This document shows, piece by piece, positions 3,857 through 29,328 of a stretch of DNA of 29,328 nucleotides. The stretch spans positions 1 to 29,328 of IMG/VR virus record IMGVR_UViG_3300032295_002282. One strand, written 5' to 3'. The first letter of the stretch is position 1; the number at the start of each line of letters is the position of its first letter. The position numbers and the translations under genes are program-made. This DNA comes from a virus. Lineage: Duplodnaviria; Caudoviricetes. The notes under the pieces were generated by a model, which saw nothing but the letters and a program-made list of their open reading frames with translations, searched no databases and had not been told where the DNA came from.

Positions 3857-6571
3857 TTATCTTAAGTTTAATCTAGATGAGTTTTCCATTGAAGAACTAA
3901 ATACAGTATATTCGGCTCTTACAATACCACCACTTACTGATGCTGTTCCTGTCAATTGAGAGAATGAAGCATTATCTATATAAGATGATGTTTTTGGAAT
4001 TACTTGTGTACTACCTGATTGGAATCTGAAATATAAGTATCCTGATCCAGTTGCCCACAAACTACCATTTGGATTTTGATATGTTGGAGGTGTTACTAAT
4101 CCTGCTAGATATATTCCTGAAACAAATAATCCAGGTAGTGGTGATGTAGATGAACTTATAAATCCAATAGTATTCCATCCTGTTTCACTAAATGAAGGAT
4201 ATACTGAAGATGTAGAATATATAGCAGAAGCAGTTATCGAACCTGTTTGTATACCTAAGTTTGTTATTGAGAATCCAATATAATTGTTTATATCAGTTGA
4301 AAGTGATTGACTTTTATTTCCAAATAACTGTTTAGATGATCCAATTGTTGGATGAACTGAAGCTGTGCCTGGTATAATAAGTGTTTCAACTTTTGGAAAT
4401 TCATAGTACATATAAACTGATGATGTACCATTCCAAGTTACTCTAGTTCCTGAATCAATATCAATTTTTTGTCCACCTGCACCTCTAATTTTATATAAGT
4501 TAGATCCTGAATAACCACCACTTACAAAAATAAATGTATTTGCTTGAGGTTGATTTATGTAAGATGAATGGTAAAGTGAATTTGAAATATAAGTAAATGG
4601 AGTCCACTTAGAATCATTTTCTAAAGGCATTGATGCCGTAGTAGTATTTCTATAAATAGAAGCTGTTAATGGGTATAAACTACCTGTATCAGTAACATCC
4701 ATATATTGATCAAAATAGAATCTTACTGATTGAGTTGTGAAACAACTACCACTTGTATTTGCTAAACTTTGAGAAACACTATTAAAATATATTTGTGCTT
4801 GTGATTGAGCATCTGCTTGTGAACAAGAACTATATGATTGAGAGGCTGGTATAGATACATTTACAAAAGTACCATATTCAGGTCCTGCAGAACAATCATT
4901 TTTCTGTACAGTAGCACTTATAGCTGTGTTGTAATATAATCCAACTTTATCTACTCTAAAATTAGCAAACGTAGCATCACTTGCACTAAATGGTGTCATT
5001 GTATATGCTACTTTAACTATATTACCACAAGAACTTACAGCAATGGAAGCAAAATTTGTAGTCCAAGCTTGTCCACTTGTATATTGAATTGGATTACCAT
5101 TTAAATCAACAAATTTGAAATAATAGTAATTTGATTGTGAAACATATGAAGCAACATCTGAATTTATCAATGAACCAGTTATGTAAACAGGTTCTAAACC
5201 ATCTAATCCACTAGGAACAGTGAAATAAGAATGTACTCTAAATTTAGCATCATTTGCATCTGGAAAATCAGTTGAACTTGTATATAGGAATGAAGCTGTA
5301 ATTGGTTTAAGTGTACCACTAATTAATAAATCACCTGTAAGTATAGGTTGTGTAACAATATCATTTGCAAGTCCTAAACTTTGGGTAAAGTTATTATATA
5401 ATTTAGGTTTAGATTCTAGTGGTATTGTTACAGTTTGACCAAATGAAGTAATTTGAGTAGGTCCAAACATAAATGCTGTACCGTTACCTTCATTAATACC
5501 TACAAACATTATTTTTTCATTATTTTTATCTCTAGGCTTAACCCAAACATATGATCCTGAAGTTGCTGTAATTCCATTTAAATCGTAATTTACACTACCA
5601 GAATTTTGACTTGAACTAATATAACCTGCTATAGCCCATTTAGGATCATTTTCTGCAGGAGCATTTGCTGAACCAGATGCTGCTGATGAAGTATATAAAT
5701 AAGACATTGTAACTGGGAAGTTACTTGTATCTTGAACATCTGTTTGGAATGTAGATCTAAGTGTGAAACAGAATGTAGATCCTGTATCACAACTACCACT
5801 TGCATTAGCCCAACTTTGAGATACACTATTGAAATAGTTTTGAGCGCTTGTTTGAGCTTCACTTAATGAACAAGTACTTACTGATTGAGAAGCAGGTACT
5901 GTTACTAAACTAAATGAACCAGTATAACAAACAGCACAATCATTTCTTTGTACTGATGCACTGATTTGTGTATTGTAATAATAATTTATTGAACAAGTAC
6001 CATTTGTATTTGCATACGACTGAGAAGTAGCTGCAAAATAAATAGATGCACTTGTATTTGCTTCACTTAATGAACAAGTATTTGTAAACATTGATGATGA
6101 AGCAGGTATTGTATAAAGTACAGATGAACCTGTTTGACAAGTAGGACAATCATTTTTAGTAATTGAACCACTTATTTGTATATTATAGAAAGTATTAATT
6201 GAACAACTACCAAAAGAATTGGCATTTGATTGACTAACACTAGTTAAATAAGCTAATGCTTGGGCATTTGCGTTTGCTTGAGATGCAGTTGAAGTAAAAG
6301 CATCTGCTGGTACTATTGTAGTATAAAAACTACCTGTTTGACAAGTAGGACAATTATTCTTTTGTGTTGATGCACTTATTGCTGTATTACCATAACTACC
6401 ACTTACACTACCACTAAATACAAATGTATAAGAACCTGTAACACCTGCCCCATAACATAAATTAGCTACTGACATAGTAACACAATTTACACCAGGTGAA
6501 CCTGCTAAAGCTTGAATCATATCTATGTTGATAGGATAACTGTTAGGTACTGTTAAATAAACTGTAGGCAT
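3857..6571 (-). CDS. Tail-associated or receptor-binding protein with four DUF5977-like repeats and four copies of a second degenerate domain
   Basis: 904 aa, Ser/Thr-rich. Repeats of the form YYNT.ISAS.Q.NDC...GS....PAS...S...A...A..YF.S.SQS.AN..G.C. Confidence 0.75.
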   Translation of the reverse strand: MPTVYLTVPNSYPINIDMIQALAGSPGVNCVTMSVANLCYGAGVTGSYTFVFSGSVSGSYGNTAISASTQKNNCPTCQTGSFYTTIVPADAFTSTASQANANAQALAYLTSVSQSNANSFGSCSINTFYNIQISGSITKNDCPTCQTGSSVLYTIPASSSMFTNTCSLSEANTSASIYFAATSQSYANTNGTCSINYYYNTQISASVQRNDCAVCYTGSFSLVTVPASQSVSTCSLSEAQTSAQNYFNSVSQSWANASGSCDTGSTFCFTLRSTFQTDVQDTSNFPVTMSYLYTSSAASGSANAPAENDPKWAIAGYISSSQNSGSVNYDLNGITATSGSYVWVKPRDKNNEKIMFVGINEGNGTAFMFGPTQITSFGQTVTIPLESKPKLYNNFTQSLGLANDIVTQPILTGDLLISGTLKPITASFLYTSSTDFPDANDAKFRVHSYFTVPSGLDGLEPVYITGSLINSDVASYVSQSNYYYFKFVDLNGNPIQYTSGQAWTTNFASIAVSSCGNIVKVAYTMTPFSASDATFANFRVDKVGLYYNTAISATVQKNDCSAGPEYGTFVNVSIPASQSYSSCSQADAQSQAQIYFNSVSQSLANTSGSCFTTQSVRFYFDQYMDVTDTGSLYPLTASIYRNTTTASMPLENDSKWTPFTYISNSLYHSSYINQPQANTFIFVSGGYSGSNLYKIRGAGGQKIDIDSGTRVTWNGTSSVYMYYEFPKVETLIIPGTASVHPTIGSSKQLFGNKSQSLSTDINNYIGFSITNLGIQTGSITASAIYSTSSVYPSFSETGWNTIGFISSSTSPLPGLFVSGIYLAGLVTPPTYQNPNGSLWATGSGYLYFRFQSGSTQVIPKTSSYIDNASFSQLTGTASVSGGIVRAEYTVFSSSMENSSRLNLR
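4742..6394 (-). repeat. Four DUF5977-like coding repeats (~6394-6203, 6190-5993, 5980-5789, 4936-4742)
   Basis: Same Cys-bounded consensus as the repeats in the upstream gene. Confidence 0.85.
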
Positions 6572-6580
6572 AATTTAATT

Positions 6581-8161
6581 TTAAGGGCACAATGCTTTAT
6601 TTGATAAAATTCCTCCATTATTGATTTGTGCTACAGCGGCTGGAGTTGATGTTCCATCTGCAGTATAAGCATACCATTGATTACCACCAACAAAACCAGT
6701 TATAAGACTTGTATCTGAGTATAATCTAGTTACTGCTGTTAAAGTACTTTCTGATGCATAGTAATCATTGTAAGTATCAGTTGGTTGATTTGTACAAGCA
6801 CTACCTGAATCACTATAACCAAAAGTATCATTATAAATTCTATAGGTATAGTAACTCGAGCCTGTTATGCAAGTACCATTTGTATTCGCATACGATTGTG
6901 AAGTACTATTAAAATATGTTGAAGCACTAGCCTGAGCATCTGGTTGAGATACACTTGAACTAAATACTGAAGCGCTTATTGTATATGTAACAAACGATCC
7001 TGTTGCACTACCTGTACAATCATTTTTCTGTATTGAAGCACTAATTTGTGTGTTATAATACAATGAAGATGTTGTACAAGTACCGTTTGTATTAGCATAT
7101 GATTGAGATGTGCTATTGAAGTATGCTGAAGCACTTGCTTGAGCATCTCCTTGTGATACACTAGAACTGAAATTACCAGCTGGTAAAGTATATGTTACAA
7201 ATGATCCTGTAGTACTACCTGTACAATCATTCTTTTGAATGGATGCACTTATAGCTGTATTATAAAATATTGAAGAAGTACAAATACCATATGTGTTAGC
7301 ATATGATTGAGATGTGCTGTTGAAATAAGCACTTGCACTTGCTTGAGCAATAGGTTGAGATACGCTTGAACTAAATGTTGAGGCACTTACTGTATAATTA
7401 ACAAATGAACCTGTTAAACTACCTGTGCAATCATTTCTTTGTATTGAAGCGCTTATAGCTGTATTATAATACATTGGACTAGAAGGACAAGATCCAGTAG
7501 TATAATCTATTTTAATTGTTACAGAGTTTGGATTGTTACAACAGTTTGAACCTGTAATACCAAATGTTACTACTTGACTTGAAGTATTATATAATACTGA
7601 ACCATATAATGTAGGCGGTTGTTCGCACGTGTTATCAAATGTAAATTTATTATCTAAACTACCTTCTAATAATGGACCTAATAATTCCATTCTACATTCA
7701 CCTGTTCTTAAATTGTAGTCATTTATAGCACGTAGATGATAATAGTTAGAACGTAATTGAATAATATCATTTAATTCTAATTTACTATAAACAGCAAAAG
7801 GTAATACTGCATTACATCTTAAAATTCTAGTTCTAGGATCATAAAGTAAATTTACATAATTACTCCAGTATTTGTCATAAAGTGACTGTGAAGGGGTTTG
7901 TGTACCATACACAGGCTCTTCATTTAAAAATAGTAATGACAACGAACTTGTAGTCGTTGTCTGTCCACTATAATGATCAAAATAAGGGAATGCTGTAAAT
8001 GTATCAGTAGTTACAAGTGTACTACCTGTATTATAATATTGTACTTTAATAGTGTCACACTCTTTAGTACCATTATAGAAAAATATTCTAGGAAATACTT
8101 TGGCAGGTGCAAAACTTTCATTCGAAATAAAGTAAGGTATGTATATTTTGTTTTTCGCCAT
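6581..8161 (-). CDS. Tail tip protein: tail-hub C-terminal-like domain followed by three DUF5977-like repeats
   Basis: 526 aa. N-terminal PRIFFYNG...SLYDKYWSNYVNLLY...LELNDII...AINDYN region, then three ~68-aa tandem Cys-bounded repeats. Confidence 0.75.
   Translation of the reverse strand: MAKNKIYIPYFISNESFAPAKVFPRIFFYNGTKECDTIKVQYYNTGSTLVTTDTFTAFPYFDHYSGQTTTTSSLSLLFLNEEPVYGTQTPSQSLYDKYWSNYVNLLYDPRTRILRCNAVLPFAVYSKLELNDIIQLRSNYYHLRAINDYNLRTGECRMELLGPLLEGSLDNKFTFDNTCEQPPTLYGSVLYNTSSQVVTFGITGSNCCNNPNSVTIKIDYTTGSCPSSPMYYNTAISASIQRNDCTGSLTGSFVNYTVSASTFSSSVSQPIAQASASAYFNSTSQSYANTYGICTSSIFYNTAISASIQKNDCTGSTTGSFVTYTLPAGNFSSSVSQGDAQASASAYFNSTSQSYANTNGTCTTSSLYYNTQISASIQKNDCTGSATGSFVTYTISASVFSSSVSQPDAQASASTYFNSTSQSYANTNGTCITGSSYYTYRIYNDTFGYSDSGSACTNQPTDTYNDYYASESTLTAVTRLYSDTSLITGFVGGNQWYAYTADGTSTPAAVAQINNGGILSNKALCP
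6869..7471 (-). repeat. Three tandem DUF5977-like coding repeats (~204-207 nt period)
   Basis: Unit starts near 7471, 7267 and 7060, with high nucleotide and amino-acid similarity. Confidence 0.9.
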
Positions 8162-23578: not shown

Positions 23579-23818
23579 TTATACTTCCAAGTTTGTACCT
23601 GACTCAAATGTTGCTTTATTAGCCTCAACCCAGCGTTTAATATCGCCTAACCAATCTAAAAATAGTTGTGGATTACAGGAACAAGGTTTATGATAAGGGT
23701 GATTCATAACTTTAGCGTGCCAACTTGCAGTAGCACCTTGATCATCACCAGTAAATTGTTTTAAATCAATCTTAGACAACCAATCATTTAGTTGTTTCCA
23801 TTCGTAATTTGATATCAT
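23579..23818 (-). CDS. Hypothetical protein with a PCSC motif
   Basis: 79 aa, ATGA-coupled to the sigma gene. Confidence 0.7.
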   Translation of the reverse strand: MISNYEWKQLNDWLSKIDLKQFTGDDQGATASWHAKVMNHPYHKPCSCNPQLFLDWLGDIKRWVEANKATFESGTNLEV

Positions 23819-24375
23819 TGTTTGTAACTTTTAGAATTATAACCTTGTTTTTCAAGTTTAGTGCGTACAATCTCTCTAGTATTTTTCAATGATGTCCAGA
23901 TTGATGAAGTACTGATTTTAGTTTCTTTATGTAGTGAATTGATAGAATGGTTTTTACCATCCTTATTTTTACCATTTAAATACAAATCAATAAGACGAGC
24001 ATCAAACCAATGAACATCATTTTGTAATGTTTCATTCACTAGTCTAATCATTGCCTCAAAATTATCATCTTTATCTAATGAATAAAAATCAGCCTCAAAT
24101 TCAACTTCAGGTAATGCAACGTGTGAACTGGCATGTTTCTGATATCTGTTTAAAAAAACGCTTCTAAGTGTTTTATACAAATAATATAGATTGACAGTAT
24201 TGCCGTACTTGATTTTGCTAATGTCTTTCATTTCCCACAACATCACAAACATATCCTGAACCATATCTTGGGCAGTATGTTTATTATTACTAAAGTTATA
24301 AGCTACTTGGTGTAGCCATTCACTGTGAATGTCGTAAATTAATGTTATTAACTTTTGCTTTTCGTTTTCACTCAT
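23815..24375 (-). CDS. ECF-type sigma70-family RNA polymerase sigma factor
   Basis: Region-2-like WLHQVAYNF....AQDMVQDMFV.LW and region-4 HTH-like SINSLHKETKISTSSIWTSLKNTR. Confidence 0.85.
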   Translation of the reverse strand: MSENEKQKLITLIYDIHSEWLHQVAYNFSNNKHTAQDMVQDMFVMLWEMKDISKIKYGNTVNLYYLYKTLRSVFLNRYQKHASSHVALPEVEFEADFYSLDKDDNFEAMIRLVNETLQNDVHWFDARLIDLYLNGKNKDGKNHSINSLHKETKISTSSIWTSLKNTREIVRTKLEKQGYNSKSYKQ

Positions 24376-25221: not shown

Positions 25222-25389
25222 TAAAGGTAAGACCAGGTTTTGAGGCAACCAAATTTACTTTCAAGTACATAACATTTAGGCCCTAAAGGTACGACCAGGT
25301 TTGTACCAAGCCAAATTTATTTTTTACTACATTGTGTAGTGTTAACAAGTAGACACCTAAAGGTAAGTTAGGAATTTGGCAACGCCAAA
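25222..25389 (-). promoter_or_regulatory. Three tandem Bacteroidota-type housekeeping promoters (25222-25253, 25284-25315, 25358-25389)
   Basis: Each reads TTTG-N20-TACCTTTA on the minus strand. This is a near match to the -33 TTTG / -7 TAnnTTTG consensus, and the 20-nt spacing is the same in all three. Confidence 0.8.
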
Positions 25390-26069: not shown

Positions 26070-26753
26070 TTAGTTATCGTTATTATTAGTTTCGCCATCT
26101 AATGCTTTGTGTTTAACACCAATGTGGAATGAACCACCATCTGCTCTTACTGCTGCACTAAATGGATAAACAAACCATTCTAAGTCAGTGTCTTTAAATG
26201 CTGCTGTTTCAGTTAATATATCAAAATACCATTGATGTTGTTGGAATACACTTTGGTGCAATACTACTCCATCAATTACATCTGTGTTAGTACTAATACT
26301 AGCAACGAATATACCATTGGGATTAAGGTTATTATAGATGTTTTTAAACAACGCATTCAAGTCATTTGGGTGAATGTGTTCAATTAATTCCCAAGCTGTT
26401 ATAAGGTCAAATTTAATTGGATCACCTGTGATGAATTCAAAGCTAAATGGCTTGGTAGCATCAGCAGTGAATAAATTCTTATTATGATATGCTGGCCAAT
26501 TTGCACGTTGGTGTTTTACACTATAATCACTACCTTCTACACCAATTGCTAAATGCCCTCTGTTGTGGTAATCAACTATCATTTGCCCACCACTGCAACC
26601 AATGTCTAGTACATTGATTTTTTTATTACTAAACCATTGTTCTGTTTGGTTAATGAATTCTTCATTTGTACTGTTGTCTCTCATTGTACCCCAAGGCATA
26701 ATGTGATCTGGTGATTCATATGCTATTGGATGTTCTGTGTTAATTTTAATCAT
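26070..26753 (-). CDS. Class I SAM-dependent methyltransferase (small-molecule or glycan type)
   Basis: Motif I VLDIGCSGG, AIGVE, ADAT, FDLITAWELIEHI, L.PNG.F. No DPPY/NPPY or PC DNA-methylase motif. Confidence 0.9.
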   Translation of the reverse strand: MIKINTEHPIAYESPDHIMPWGTMRDNSTNEEFINQTEQWFSNKKINVLDIGCSGGQMIVDYHNRGHLAIGVEGSDYSVKHQRANWPAYHNKNLFTADATKPFSFEFITGDPIKFDLITAWELIEHIHPNDLNALFKNIYNNLNPNGIFVASISTNTDVIDGVVLHQSVFQQHQWYFDILTETAAFKDTDLEWFVYPFSAAVRADGGSFHIGVKHKALDGETNNNDN

Positions 26754-27581: not shown

Positions 27582-27688
27582 TGACTAACTTTGTAAATTA
27601 GGAATAAAAACAACATATACCAAAATAATAGTTGTAAAGCATAGTTGTTAGCTATCTGTTTTTTAATCCATTCTTTTATTCGTTCCAT
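27569..27688 (-). CDS. Small single-pass membrane protein (39 aa, not in the ORF track)
   Basis: MERIKEWIKKQIANNYALQLLFWYMLFLFLIYKVSQWIF. It fills the 27581-27676 gap and overlaps both neighbours. Confidence 0.65.
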   Translation of the reverse strand: MERIKEWIKKQIANNYALQLLFWYMLFLFLIYKVSQWIF

Positions 27689-27975
27689 GGAGGTTGTTGA
27701 GTTTTAAGTGAGAATTTAGATTTGGGTTTCTGTTGGGGTTTTGCTTTCATCTCAAGTTGATGCATTTGGTAACATAATTTCTCCAACATTTGTAATTGAC
27801 CTGGTGTTACATATGGTTTTTCATTTACCCATTCTGCCATACCAGTTAGAAATTTGCTTATAAAAGCATATTCATTTGATTTCAGTTGTGATTGATATTT
27901 TTCAAACTGATCTGCTACGTGCTGATAGTAATTTTCTATTTCCTCAGTCACTTCTAGTTTAATTCTTAAGTCCAT
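27676..27975 (-). CDS. Hypothetical early protein
   Basis: 99-aa ORF in the early operon. Confidence 0.7.
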   Translation of the reverse strand: MDLRIKLEVTEEIENYYQHVADQFEKYQSQLKSNEYAFISKFLTGMAEWVNEKPYVTPGQLQMLEKLCYQMHQLEMKAKPQQKPKSKFSLKTQQPPWNE

Positions 27976-27981
27976 AACATT

Positions 27982-28257
27982 TTATTTTACTGATTTAGAT
28001 AATTCAAGCATATTGTTAAAGTGAGTTAAACCTTTACTTACATCGTGCCCTGTAATAACTTTAAATCCACGTACTACACCACTACGTTTTTCTGCTTTAT
28101 AAATCATAGCATTGCTTGCATTTAATGCTTTTTTAGCTTCTGCCATTGTTGGGAAGTAAGCAAATACGATTACTGGTTTACCATAACCTTCTACCATTTT
28201 GTCTTTAATTTTTGCTGAACGTAATTTATTATCAGCGAATTGTTTCTTTTTTTCCAT
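27982..28257 (-). CDS. Small basic protein with a NUMOD1-like HTH
   Basis: GKPV......FPTMAEAKKAL.......I pattern. First gene after the promoter at 28279-28310. Confidence 0.55.
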   Translation of the reverse strand: MEKKKQFADNKLRSAKIKDKMVEGYGKPVIVFAYFPTMAEAKKALNASNAMIYKAEKRSGVVRGFKVITGHDVSKGLTHFNNMLELSKSVK

Positions 28258-28278
28258 TGTGTTTACATTTGTTTGTTA

Positions 28279-28310
28279 TAAATATACGATGGAACCCTCA
28301 GTAAACCAAA
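28279..28310 (-). promoter_or_regulatory. Bacteroidota-type promoter for the early operon
   Basis: Minus-strand TTTG-N20-TATATTTA, ending 21 nt before ATG 28257. Confidence 0.8.
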
Positions 28311-28316
28311 TCTAAT

Positions 28317-28348
28317 TTTGGTAATCTAAAAATATTTTATTATATTTA
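28317..28348 (+). promoter_or_regulatory. Divergent Bacteroidota-type promoter on the plus strand
   Basis: TTTG (28317-28320), N20, TATATTTA (28341-28348), back to back with the early promoter. Confidence 0.7.
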
Positions 28349-28354
28349 TTAACG

Positions 28355-28684
28355 CACATAAGCACATTGTAAATAATAGCTGTGTAATAGTAAACATAAC
28401 GCTGTGAGATTCAGCATCGTCCCCATTTGTTTAACAGGGTTCCAAATGGACAAGGCGCGAACAGATACAACTGTTCAACTTGGTTTAGATTTGTTCAACT
28501 AATGGATTGAACAATGGAAGTCCAGGGTTCGAAGTTTTACTGCAACATAGCACTTGTAAATAATATTTTAACTTAGTGTTAACCAGTTCTAATGTAAGCT
28601 GCCATTTATATTTAGAATTATTCAGCTGGTTAATTACGTTTGACACATAAAGAGAGCCCCGCATTAGCGGGGCTTTCATTTTTT
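28355..28684 (+). ncRNA. Candidate structured non-coding RNA (~330 nt)
   Basis: Bounded by a promoter and a terminator. Five or more hairpins including a T-loop-type GCUG-UGAGA-UU-CAGC. Only ORFs of about 20 codons or fewer on this strand. Confidence 0.55.
28654..28684. terminator. Strong, probably bidirectional intrinsic terminator
   Basis: GAGCCCCGC-ATTA-GCGGGGCTT, followed by TCATTTTTT on plus and CTCTTTAT on minus. Lies just after the protease stop. Confidence 0.85.
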
Positions 28685-28699
28685 CTATTTTATATAGAG

Positions 28700-29328
28700 T
28701 TACTCTGCTTTAGGATGTCCTTTAGGTAGTAAATCATAATCTGTAGTATAAGCATCATTTTGAGGTCTACCATTTTTTAACAAATATAAAAATGCGTTTA
28801 CTCTAGCAAATGCCCATTGTGATGGTGATTGTACTTTAGGTGAACGAGATGTGTTATAAGCACCTAAACCACGTTGAAATACTGATTTTAAGGCACCTAC
28901 ATTCGCTTTACCATATTTGGTATTTGATTCTTTATTATTGAATTCAGATGCTTTATTTTTAAGTGTTTCTTCATCTTGTGCACTTACCTCAGCACCACGT
29001 TTACCACTTGCATCACCTTTAGCTGTACCTTCACCTTTTGGATTTGGATTAGGTGTATCTGATTTAGGTGCTTTAGGAGATGCTTTAATTCCTCCACGTT
29101 CACCTACTTCAGCAAATTTAACTGTTTCAACACCAGGAACATATTCATTTATTCTGTTTAGCTCATTCTGATTATTGTCAAAGTGTTTAGCTATTTTTAA
29201 TCGTCTTACAGTGTCATACTTTAATGCGCCACCTGTAAAATAAATGTTGTTACGTGGTATTTCTAATTTATCAGCTATTTTATATACTTCATCAGACATA
29301 TTTTTTTGTCTGCGAGTAATGATATAAA
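28700..29328 (-). CDS. 3' part of the multidomain prohead protease (end of the HAD-like domain, a linker, and a C-terminal RG.GAY...QWAFARVNAFL domain)
   Basis: The track start 29299 equals position 94, which is 402 codons downstream of ATG 1300 in the same frame. Stop at 28700-28702. Confidence 0.9.
   Translation of the reverse strand, partial: YIITRRQKNMSDEVYKIADKLEIPRNNIYFTGGALKYDTVRRLKIAKHFDNNQNELNRINEYVPGVETVKFAEVGERGGIKASPKAPKSDTPNPNPKGEGTAKGDASGKRGAEVSAQDEETLKNKASEFNNKESNTKYGKANVGALKSVFQRGLGAYNTSRSPKVQSPSQWAFARVNAFLYLLKNGRPQNDAYTTDYDLLPKGHPKAE
29206..29328. repeat. Terminal direct repeat, right copy (circular-assembly overlap)
   Basis: Identical to 1-123. Confidence 0.97.

Follow-up and report, generated by a model that had tools for sequence, protein, structure and literature searches.

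The terminase, portal and tape-measure matches of the phage genome analysed here all lie on the minus strand, and the question raised by this locus is what is made from a plus-strand unit at 28350-28690 and what it does for the phage. The window, the whole stretch of 29,328 nucleotides that was analysed (IMG/VR record IMGVR_UViG_3300032295_002282), is a whole virus record in one contig. It carries a 123-nt terminal repeat at its ends, and the genome is therefore taken to be circular, with a length of 29.2 kb. It belongs to a small, uncultured tailed phage, probably from lake water. Lake-water metagenomes account for 15 of the 20 sequencing runs listed as containing it, and the seven best contain at least half of the sampled words; the listing includes no RNA run, which counts neither for nor against transcription. 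A protein of Nonlabens phages P12024L/S shares 30% identity with the probable capsid protein. This match, the lake runs and the promoter type together point to a freshwater Bacteroidota as the probable host.

The unit lies between the early and late regions and has the following surroundings.

27982-28257, minus strand: first early gene, 91 aa, excisionase/Cro-like as judged via its L036 homolog; flank of the RNA
28279-28310, minus strand: sigma-A-type (Bacteroidota) promoter of the early operon; the RNA promoter adjoins it in the opposite orientation (motif)
28317-28348, plus strand: predicted RNA promoter TTTG-N20-TATATTTA (motif)
28350-28366, plus strand: conserved 5' leader CGCACAnAAGCA (invariant columns in the homolog alignment)
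28652-28686, both strands: bidirectional terminator-like hairpin common to the RNA and the convergent late operon (stem 28652-28677)
28700-29299, minus strand: prohead protease gene, 3' end; the gene runs on across the circular junction (123-nt terminal repeat; the full-length L036 homolog matches Peptidase_S78_2)

The 91-aa ORF is 42% identical to a 93-aa ORF of the relative L036, which matches PHROG excisionase (3e-5); used as a query itself, it found no viral relative in that search. The plus-strand promoter described in the first-pass annotation was found at 28317-28348, back to back with the minus-strand copy at 28310-28279. Its -7 box sits at the same position in all eight slot loci compared, and the TTTG part is present in five of them. 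The genome contains 7 copies of the motif TTTGG-N18-20-TAnnTTTR, where shuffles give 0.39 (n = 200, maximum 4). We take the TTTG upstream element to be part of the Bacteroidota sigma-A promoter type. The -7 box of that type is TAnnTTTG, of which the window motif is a variant (PMC9723704). Early transcription by the host sigma-A RNA polymerase is thus predicted from the motif, and no minus-strand promoter of this one type (TTTG..TAnnTTTR) lies inside the unit. At the other end, the terminator is present with its better T-run on the plus strand, as had been noted. This holds for the window and does not extend to the family: the equivalent hairpin of the homolog L038 has a T-run solely for the late-operon strand, and in the homolog L395 the RNA is followed by a 183-aa ORF. 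Downstream ORFs are lacking in the window, L038 and L172. The plus-strand ORFs, initially given as only 18 and 20 codons, reach 32 codons once GTG and TTG starts are allowed.

Of 108 loci retrieved with the protease and terminase, one (L038) carries a diverged version of the unit at the corresponding position (nhmmer E 8e-9). L172, the core of which equals that of L038 except for one inserted base, came from motif scans of viral contigs; across three such scans (31, 33 and 99 loci) L038 and L172 were the only true members, and a metagenome motif scan gave two true members out of 31, L395 and L402. Two genome motif scans yielded none (0/21 and 0/15), their best locus, L449, reaching 16.9 bits with little match outside the scanned motif. 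The RNA model matched none of 48 further loci, and an exact 15-mer scan with the T-loop hairpin returned 35 loci, none matching past 21 nt. Core identity is 75.5% between L038 and L395 and 58-59% between the window and either, which defines three independent lineages. Only these three were found, and two of the records with the RNA, G001 and G002, are incomplete.

RNAalifold applied to a plain MAFFT alignment of L038, L172 and L395, with the window excluded, yielded a multi-branched fold of 39 pairs, 6 of which change on both sides. After addition of three junction-closing pairs and removal of two 5' pairs, 6 of 40 pairs change on both sides and 98.3% of cells are paired. This count was equalled by 2 of 500 shuffles, with 0-1 in slid controls; it comes from an alignment not fitted to the structure and rests in effect on a single pairwise comparison. 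A model built from the three homologs detects the window at 28379-28551 on the plus strand (37.8 bits, E 8e-8; 678 kb, 63 sources). When the window is fitted to the model, 15 of the 40 pairs are changed on both sides, a count that leans to the structure. Contigs from lakes add independent changes. One X17 contig has 28426T>C together with 28446A>G, preserving a pair in helix P3b; elsewhere this contig weakens P1c. The lake contigs also carry 28511A>G, which keeps a pair of the P5 hairpin as U.G, and 28417T>A, which gives back the AAC linker seen in homologs; in lake strains 28548T>C converts a G.U pair of P1 to G-C. Compensatory changes on a shared five-way junction are thus seen in the three lineages collected.

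Folding energy is less informative. The z score is -4.39 on the plus strand with the terminator included and -4.48 on the minus strand; it is -2.29 for the core alone (4 of 200 shuffles as good) and -1.84 for the unit minus its terminator (5 of 100 as good), and scores below that of the core were reached by 4 of 49 genome tiles. Because the core score is weak, the minus strand scores equally and some tiles lie lower, energy by itself does not lift the stems above chance. As far as sequence comparison can tell, they are beyond chance by covariation, not by folding energy, and the segment 28350-28690 very probably encodes a real structured RNA.

From 5' to 3' the RNA consists of the leader, a repeat, the 5' strand of P1, hairpins P2, P3, P4 and P5, the 3' strand of P1, the repeat again, a variable hairpin and the terminator. 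P2, which carries the T-loop, joins P3, P4, P5 and P1 in a five-way junction.

28379-28400, plus strand: 5' strand of the long-range closing helix P1 (P1a, P1b, P1c) (pair probabilities; change at 28548)
28401-28415, plus strand: P2 hairpin with the T-loop-consensus loop UGAGA-UU (homolog loops; stem with a double change)
28418-28457, plus strand: P3a, internal loop and P3b with the 13-nt loop L3 (three double changes, L038 versus L395)
28459-28476, plus strand: P4 hairpin (two double changes, L038 versus L395; probability 0.98)
28479-28526, plus strand: P5 with a lineage-specific extension of ~33 nt containing the hairpin 28491-28514 (alignment, folding, 28511A>G)
28527-28551, plus strand: 3' strand of the closing helix P1 (homolog model, folding)
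28579-28633, plus strand: P6, 3' hairpin, a separable module (folding; not alignable in L038 and L395)

The stems listed by the first-pass annotation (28401-28415, 28423-28449, 28459-28476, 28491-28514 and 28579-28633) all pair fully at these positions; it did not mention the long-range closing helix, the direct repeat on either side of the core or the lack of an initiator, all of which emerged here. In P1, pair probability is 0.83-0.98 for P1a and the outer four pairs of P1b, 0.28-0.56 for inner P1b and 0.07 for P1c. P1c, P3 and P5 reach just 0.07-0.22 in the window's own ensemble, although the consensus fold costs 2 kcal/mol more than the minimum-energy fold. P6 is regarded as a separate module since, in one X4 contig, the 3' hairpin 28579-28633 and the terminator sit behind different upstream sequence. 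A pseudoknot of L3 with the 3' junction was considered and rejected; it would have 7 bp in L038 and 4 in L395 and does not fit the window.

The P2 loops read UGAGA-UU, UGUAA-U and UGCAA-U across the lineages and keep YGNRA in all three; the P2 loop had been excluded from the patterns used to find homologs. The T-loop consensus of FMN and cobalamin riboswitches is (YGNRA)NY (10.1101/2022.12.26.521914), and the terminal loop of the window fits it in full, as do those of the FMN and class-II cobalamin riboswitches, with the loops of all three lineages starting with the YGNRA pentaloop. The hairpin GCTG-TGAGATT-CAGC thus keeps its original assignment: a YGNRA pentaloop plus one or two extruded bases on a covarying stem, a fit judged from sequence. 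Unlike those riboswitches, the phage RNA gives no aptamer match, and three of its four members have no downstream gene. GGTTCGA, which had suggested a tRNA-like arm, is replaced by GGTTGCC and GGTTTGCC in homologs; as it is not conserved, it is not a tRNA arm, and ARAGORN finds no tRNA or tmRNA gene in the window.

The conserved signal might come from a small antisense protein rather than from an RNA.

28485-28679, minus strand: antisense ORF of 64 codons, rejected as a gene (frameshifts; no family match)

All four members have an ATG-started minus-strand ORF that runs through LQVLC, with three synonymous differences in those five codons. However, the ORFs are 64, 47, 40 and 59 aa long and their frames diverge right after LQVLC, and the changes elsewhere compensate RNA pairs. 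Contigs of runs X2, X3 and X4, from three studies, have a net -1 frameshift between the ATG and LQVLC that brings stops into the frame (+1 at 28572, -1 at 28641 and 28649); X10 and X17 show a further 1-nt deletion at 28545. The frameshifts in X2, X3 and X4 largely refute the ORF as a gene, and no family match was found for it. Codon-level conservation of this ORF had been named as a competitor of the RNA; with the ORF broken in close strains, the RNA reading stands and a protein is a very improbable source of the signal.

Alternatively, the locus could act as DNA, as an origin or operator. A protein of the phage or its host would then bind the two quasi-palindromic repeats, and it would be single-stranded DNA, once displaced, that adopts the fold instead of RNA. 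The minus strand folds about equally well, the repeats that flank the core are partly self-complementary, the Cro/excisionase-like gene adjoins in the window, and motifs of plasmids may act as single-stranded DNA (PMC5737381). The adjoining 91-aa gene, however, is missing in G001 and G002, all members keep the promoter box just upstream, and the P2 loop retains the RNA-specific T-loop consensus. The one-sided changes at 28548 and 28511 keep G.U pairs that exist on the plus strand only. A purely DNA-based element is unlikely on these grounds, and the structured RNA is retained.

An exact direct repeat flanks the core on both sides in all four members, with lengths of 12, 11, 10 and 11 nt.

28367-28378, plus strand: direct repeat, 5' copy TTGTAAATAATA (repeat search)
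28554-28565, plus strand: direct repeat, 3' copy; candidate RNA-DNA hybrid site (repeat search)
28435-28442, plus strand: second repeat CAGGGTTC, copy in loop L3; other copy at 28523-28530 in the 3' junction (weak)

Per 1000 shuffles, 4, 4, 12 and 1 reach the respective repeat lengths, and each repeat is found nowhere else in its available record. TGTA forms the first letters of the repeat in all members; the 7 letters that follow match at 7, 7, 6 and 6 positions within elements and at 2-4 between lineages. Something keeps the two copies identical within each phage; the partner could be the DNA template strand or a protein that binds and co-evolves, or the copies could stem from target-site duplication. 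Repeats of at least 12 nt are present in 8 of 171 genome tiles, and the force of the result comes from the position being fixed in three lineages. The repeats are AU-rich, and no conserved complement that could serve as a partner strand was found within the RNA; in the window, partial pairing between the two copies could extend P1. The shorter repeat CAGGGTTC occurs twice as annotated, at 28435 and 28523. The homologs have repeats in the corresponding positions, GGTTG in L038 and GGTTTG in L395, a pattern like that of the bracketing repeat but weak.

Target-site duplications would be expected of a small mobile or selfish element, such as a ribozyme, an intron-like or a MITE-like insert, with the 10-12-nt repeats as its footprint. 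The repeats do flank the core exactly and differ between lineages, and the core ends are paired. Homing-endonuclease-like genes are common in this phage and its relatives, and L395 has a nuclease-like ORF after the RNA; such an ORF is, however, also present without the RNA (L309, L039). The promoter and the leader CGCACAnAAGCA lie outside the repeats and are conserved along with the core, and the single swap seen breaks at 28354/28676, away from the repeats. The element interrupts no gene and matches no ribozyme or intron family, and no empty-site joint occurs among the matches listed in 8 sequencing runs, a small sample. Insertion of a mobile element is accordingly quite unlikely to account for the locus.

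What occupies this slot in related phages bears on function. The closest relative, L036/G004, is 90% identical to the window over 22.7 kb (terminase, 98%), and the alignment breaks from 27667 to 28675. Its slot lacks the RNA but has the same back-to-back promoters, together with an ORF of 138 aa that contains three repeats of 18 bp. This ORF has a weak PHROG DnaD-like match (E 7e-4), and its low-confidence structure model (pLDDT 46) may resemble a winged helix, with a predicted helix-helix-helix-strand-strand start. The second clade, with terminases 51-53% identical to that of the window, comprises G001 and G002 with the RNA and G003 with a DUF6291 gene in its place; G003 has 77-80% nucleotide identity to G001 and G002, and its DUF6291 gene has internal repeats and the same promoter. 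The order in L395 is promoter, RNA and 183-aa ORF, and in L309 promoter, DUF6291 gene, small ORFs and a 181-aa homolog (66% identical). The slot of L351 holds a Lin1244_N/replication-initiation gene (7e-29) and that of L340 DUF1376/primosomal genes. In an X17 contig, 652 other letters replace 28355-28675 between an unchanged promoter and terminator.

A set of 24 ORFs chosen by eye, 23 from 50 of 80 holin-like loci plus a 99-aa ORF of the window, contains three DUF6291 proteins, one Lin1244_N/replication-initiation protein and two DUF1376-like proteins. The others are HNH-type, AAA, DruA-like or unassigned. For DUF6291 an initiator role is inferred because it is fused to DnaB_2 (2) or Phg_2220_C (29) in 31 of 120 longer homologs listed, and because all four DUF6291 proteins scanned match PHROG replication-initiation or primosomal families.

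Several side observations concern these slots. In L036 the homologous promoter drives just a ~100-nt hairpin-plus-terminator transcript (4529-4430, minus), a possible small RNA. The ~110-nt leader of the DUF6291 gene in L037 (5790-5680, minus) has the promoter, CGCA and AAAACATA in common with the 5' part of the RNA and can form two competing helices, as a remnant or as a regulatory leader. The 181-183-aa ORFs (L395 381-932, L309 6651-7196, L039 3794-4339) follow either the RNA or an initiator-type gene; their D..D-V-K motif is presumably PD-(D/E)XK-like. This family has no Pfam match; the 183-aa member matches only hypothetical clusters in the protein atlas, and its model (pLDDT 32) is unusable. 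A DruA-like (Druantia) gene fills the slot of L313 at 6481-7695 (Pfam E 5e-20).

Small tailed phages normally carry an initiator protein or their own replisome. Among the window ORFs scanned (20 at first, then more, some tail ORFs excepted) no match to replication families was obtained, and tblastn with initiator-type queries found none in the window, G001 or G002, the early regions of which are fully covered. The circular genome therefore has no recognisable replication gene; a hidden initiator is possible, for instance the 99-aa ORF at 27676-27975 (minus). This ORF is unique to the window among the loci compared and the sole unshared candidate for that role; an atlas look-up gave a best score of 0.87, a lead only and without a name. 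The converse search agrees: the RNA model matched none of 10 whole records, 8 of them chosen for an initiator-type gene (a search with no positive control), and was negative for G003-G005 in the same search in which members scored positive. RNA and initiator occur together in no record examined.

Since a conserved RNA lies in the slot where sister phages have a likely initiator gene, and no replication gene is recognised, the RNA is a candidate for starting DNA replication. We judge it an evenly balanced proposition that the RNA acts in cis in replication initiation, opening or priming the phage origin in place of an initiator protein. Among the functions suggested originally, that of a replication primer draws real support from the exchange of this slot with initiator-type genes. 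Several facts weigh on the other side. The strong plus-strand terminator lies 90 nt after the 3' repeat copy in the window, and neither a GC-skew turn nor a DnaA-like box was found at the slot. In G005/L039, the early region of which is covered completely, the RNA and any recognisable initiator are both missing, and just a 68-aa ORF and four 13-bp repeats are seen; a missing initiator therefore need not be made up for by this RNA. The L039 arrangement (4336-4660) has the repeats between divergent promoters, followed by the 68-aa ORF, which is coupled to the 181-aa one; it may represent another, third type of replication module. The slot ORFs of L310, L315, L317, L321 and L354 likewise gave no family assignment.

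The same exchangeable early cassette could instead house a free trans-acting RNA, such as a 6S-like RNA-polymerase decoy, a protein sponge or an anti-defence decoy, with the repeats as protein-binding sites. The RNA has its own predicted promoter and, in the window, its own terminator; L038, however, has no terminator on the RNA strand. The slot also accepts non-replication genes (DruA-like, AAA), which speaks for this reading, but a trans-acting role offers no reason for the absence of any examined record with both RNA and initiator. 6S RNA is an unbranched rod with a central bubble and a long closing helix with internal loops. The phage RNA likewise has a long, irregular closing helix with internal loops, and the phage encodes a sigma-like protein (23815-24375). 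Its branched five-way core differs, and neither 6S nor any other family is matched at E up to 10. The decoy or anti-defence role proposed at first gains no support, and a trans-acting RNA of any kind has, in our estimate, a modest chance of being right. Apart from this, the sigma-70 region 2 protein (minus strand) has similar-looking ORFs in the early regions of relatives.

For a replication RNA, a mechanism can be sketched. The host polymerase would transcribe it early, the core would fold co-transcriptionally, and P1 would bring both ends together. As P1 sets the 5' repeat copy beside the site where the 3' copy is transcribed, the 5' copy, identical to the DNA just transcribed, could pair with the template strand at 28554-28565; the L3 loop copy would perhaps pair with the template at 28523-28530. 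This pairing would hold the bubble open, the nascent RNA would stay hybridised, and host RNase H/Pol I and the PriA restart system would start the plus-strand leading strand, as in ColE1. Such invasion of the template by an RNA repeat, argued by analogy, is rather doubtful.

ColE1 has no initiator; its RNA II, made from a host-polymerase promoter, forms a persistent hybrid from which RNase H and Pol I make the primer (PMC5043065). The hybrid requires an rG stretch of the RNA pairing with a dC stretch of the template (PMC4412123). The phage unit would resemble it in lacking an element-encoded initiator, in a non-coding RNA from a host-polymerase promoter (here predicted), and in an upstream RNA segment that can pair with the downstream template, rG/dC in ColE1 and putatively the direct repeat here. 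It differs in size (~220-330 nt versus 550 nt), in showing no sequence or Rfam similarity, and in its repeats, which are AU-rich with an additional short GGUU repeat and no paired G/C tracts. No antisense RNA I was found here, and the carrier is a tailed phage of probable Bacteroidota rather than an enterobacterial plasmid. ARRPOF, GEBRO and PAGEV, RNAs of 223-349 nt with several stems, are associated with replication regions, and the ARRPOF plasmid replicates without its rep gene (PMC5737381, PMC12990946). As described there, ARRPOF has P1-P8 and four pseudoknots, unlike the five-way junction with a T-loop, and belongs to plasmids, not to a phage. The T4 origins oriF and oriG consist of a promoter and a downstream region of transcript R-loop, a layout shared here if an R-loop forms; T4 has its own replisome and, in the account consulted, no conserved folded RNA is described, in contrast to the window phage with no recognisable replication gene (PMC4412123).

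The first-pass annotation did not recognise the RNA as a named family, and Rfam agrees: nothing in the window reaches the gathering threshold, and the sub-threshold matches that appear at E up to 10 fall nearly all at the terminator end. No Rfam match was obtained for L395 (E up to 10) or L402 (E up to 1), and the ARRPOF, GEBRO and PAGEV models matched neither the window nor L395 at E up to 10, nor L402 at E up to 1. Among cultured phages and plasmids (PLSDB, 72,556 plasmids), no match covered more than 19% of the query. No description of such an RNA was found in the literature searched; motifs and contig names are not in four supplementary files of a study with over ten thousand phage RNA candidates, which may list it unnamed elsewhere (PMC10690425). 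The RNA thus represents an uncatalogued phage family that most likely works like an RNA-primed replicon and is a member of no named one. The fullest form of this idea is a tailed-phage replicon without any replication protein, in which a compact T-loop RNA, with its own guides copied from the DNA just read, invades the template and primes, and which moves as a cassette between phage lineages, interchangeable with at least three initiator-protein families. We regard this as a possibility rather than a probability. An RNA that is exchanged with initiator genes would carry protein-free, RNA-primed replication beyond plasmids, into phages and Bacteroidota, and could serve in vectors as a replicon of 470 bp. 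It would also offer a 200-nt, covariation-solved model for how a transcript stays on its template, a matter still speculative even for ColE1 (PMC5043065).

Two further features of the early region were recorded. The early genes of the window include one for a SAM-dependent methyltransferase (26070-26753, minus); the methyltransferase-like gene in the early region of L039 is a different one. Three tandem TTTGG-N19-TACCTTTA motifs, ~62-74 bp apart, lie at 25222-25389 (minus) inside a 780-bp gene-free stretch. Their interpretation as iterons at 25.25-25.39 kb was dropped, and they are read as a tandem cluster of host-type promoters; similar motifs are present in L116, with small ORFs between them.
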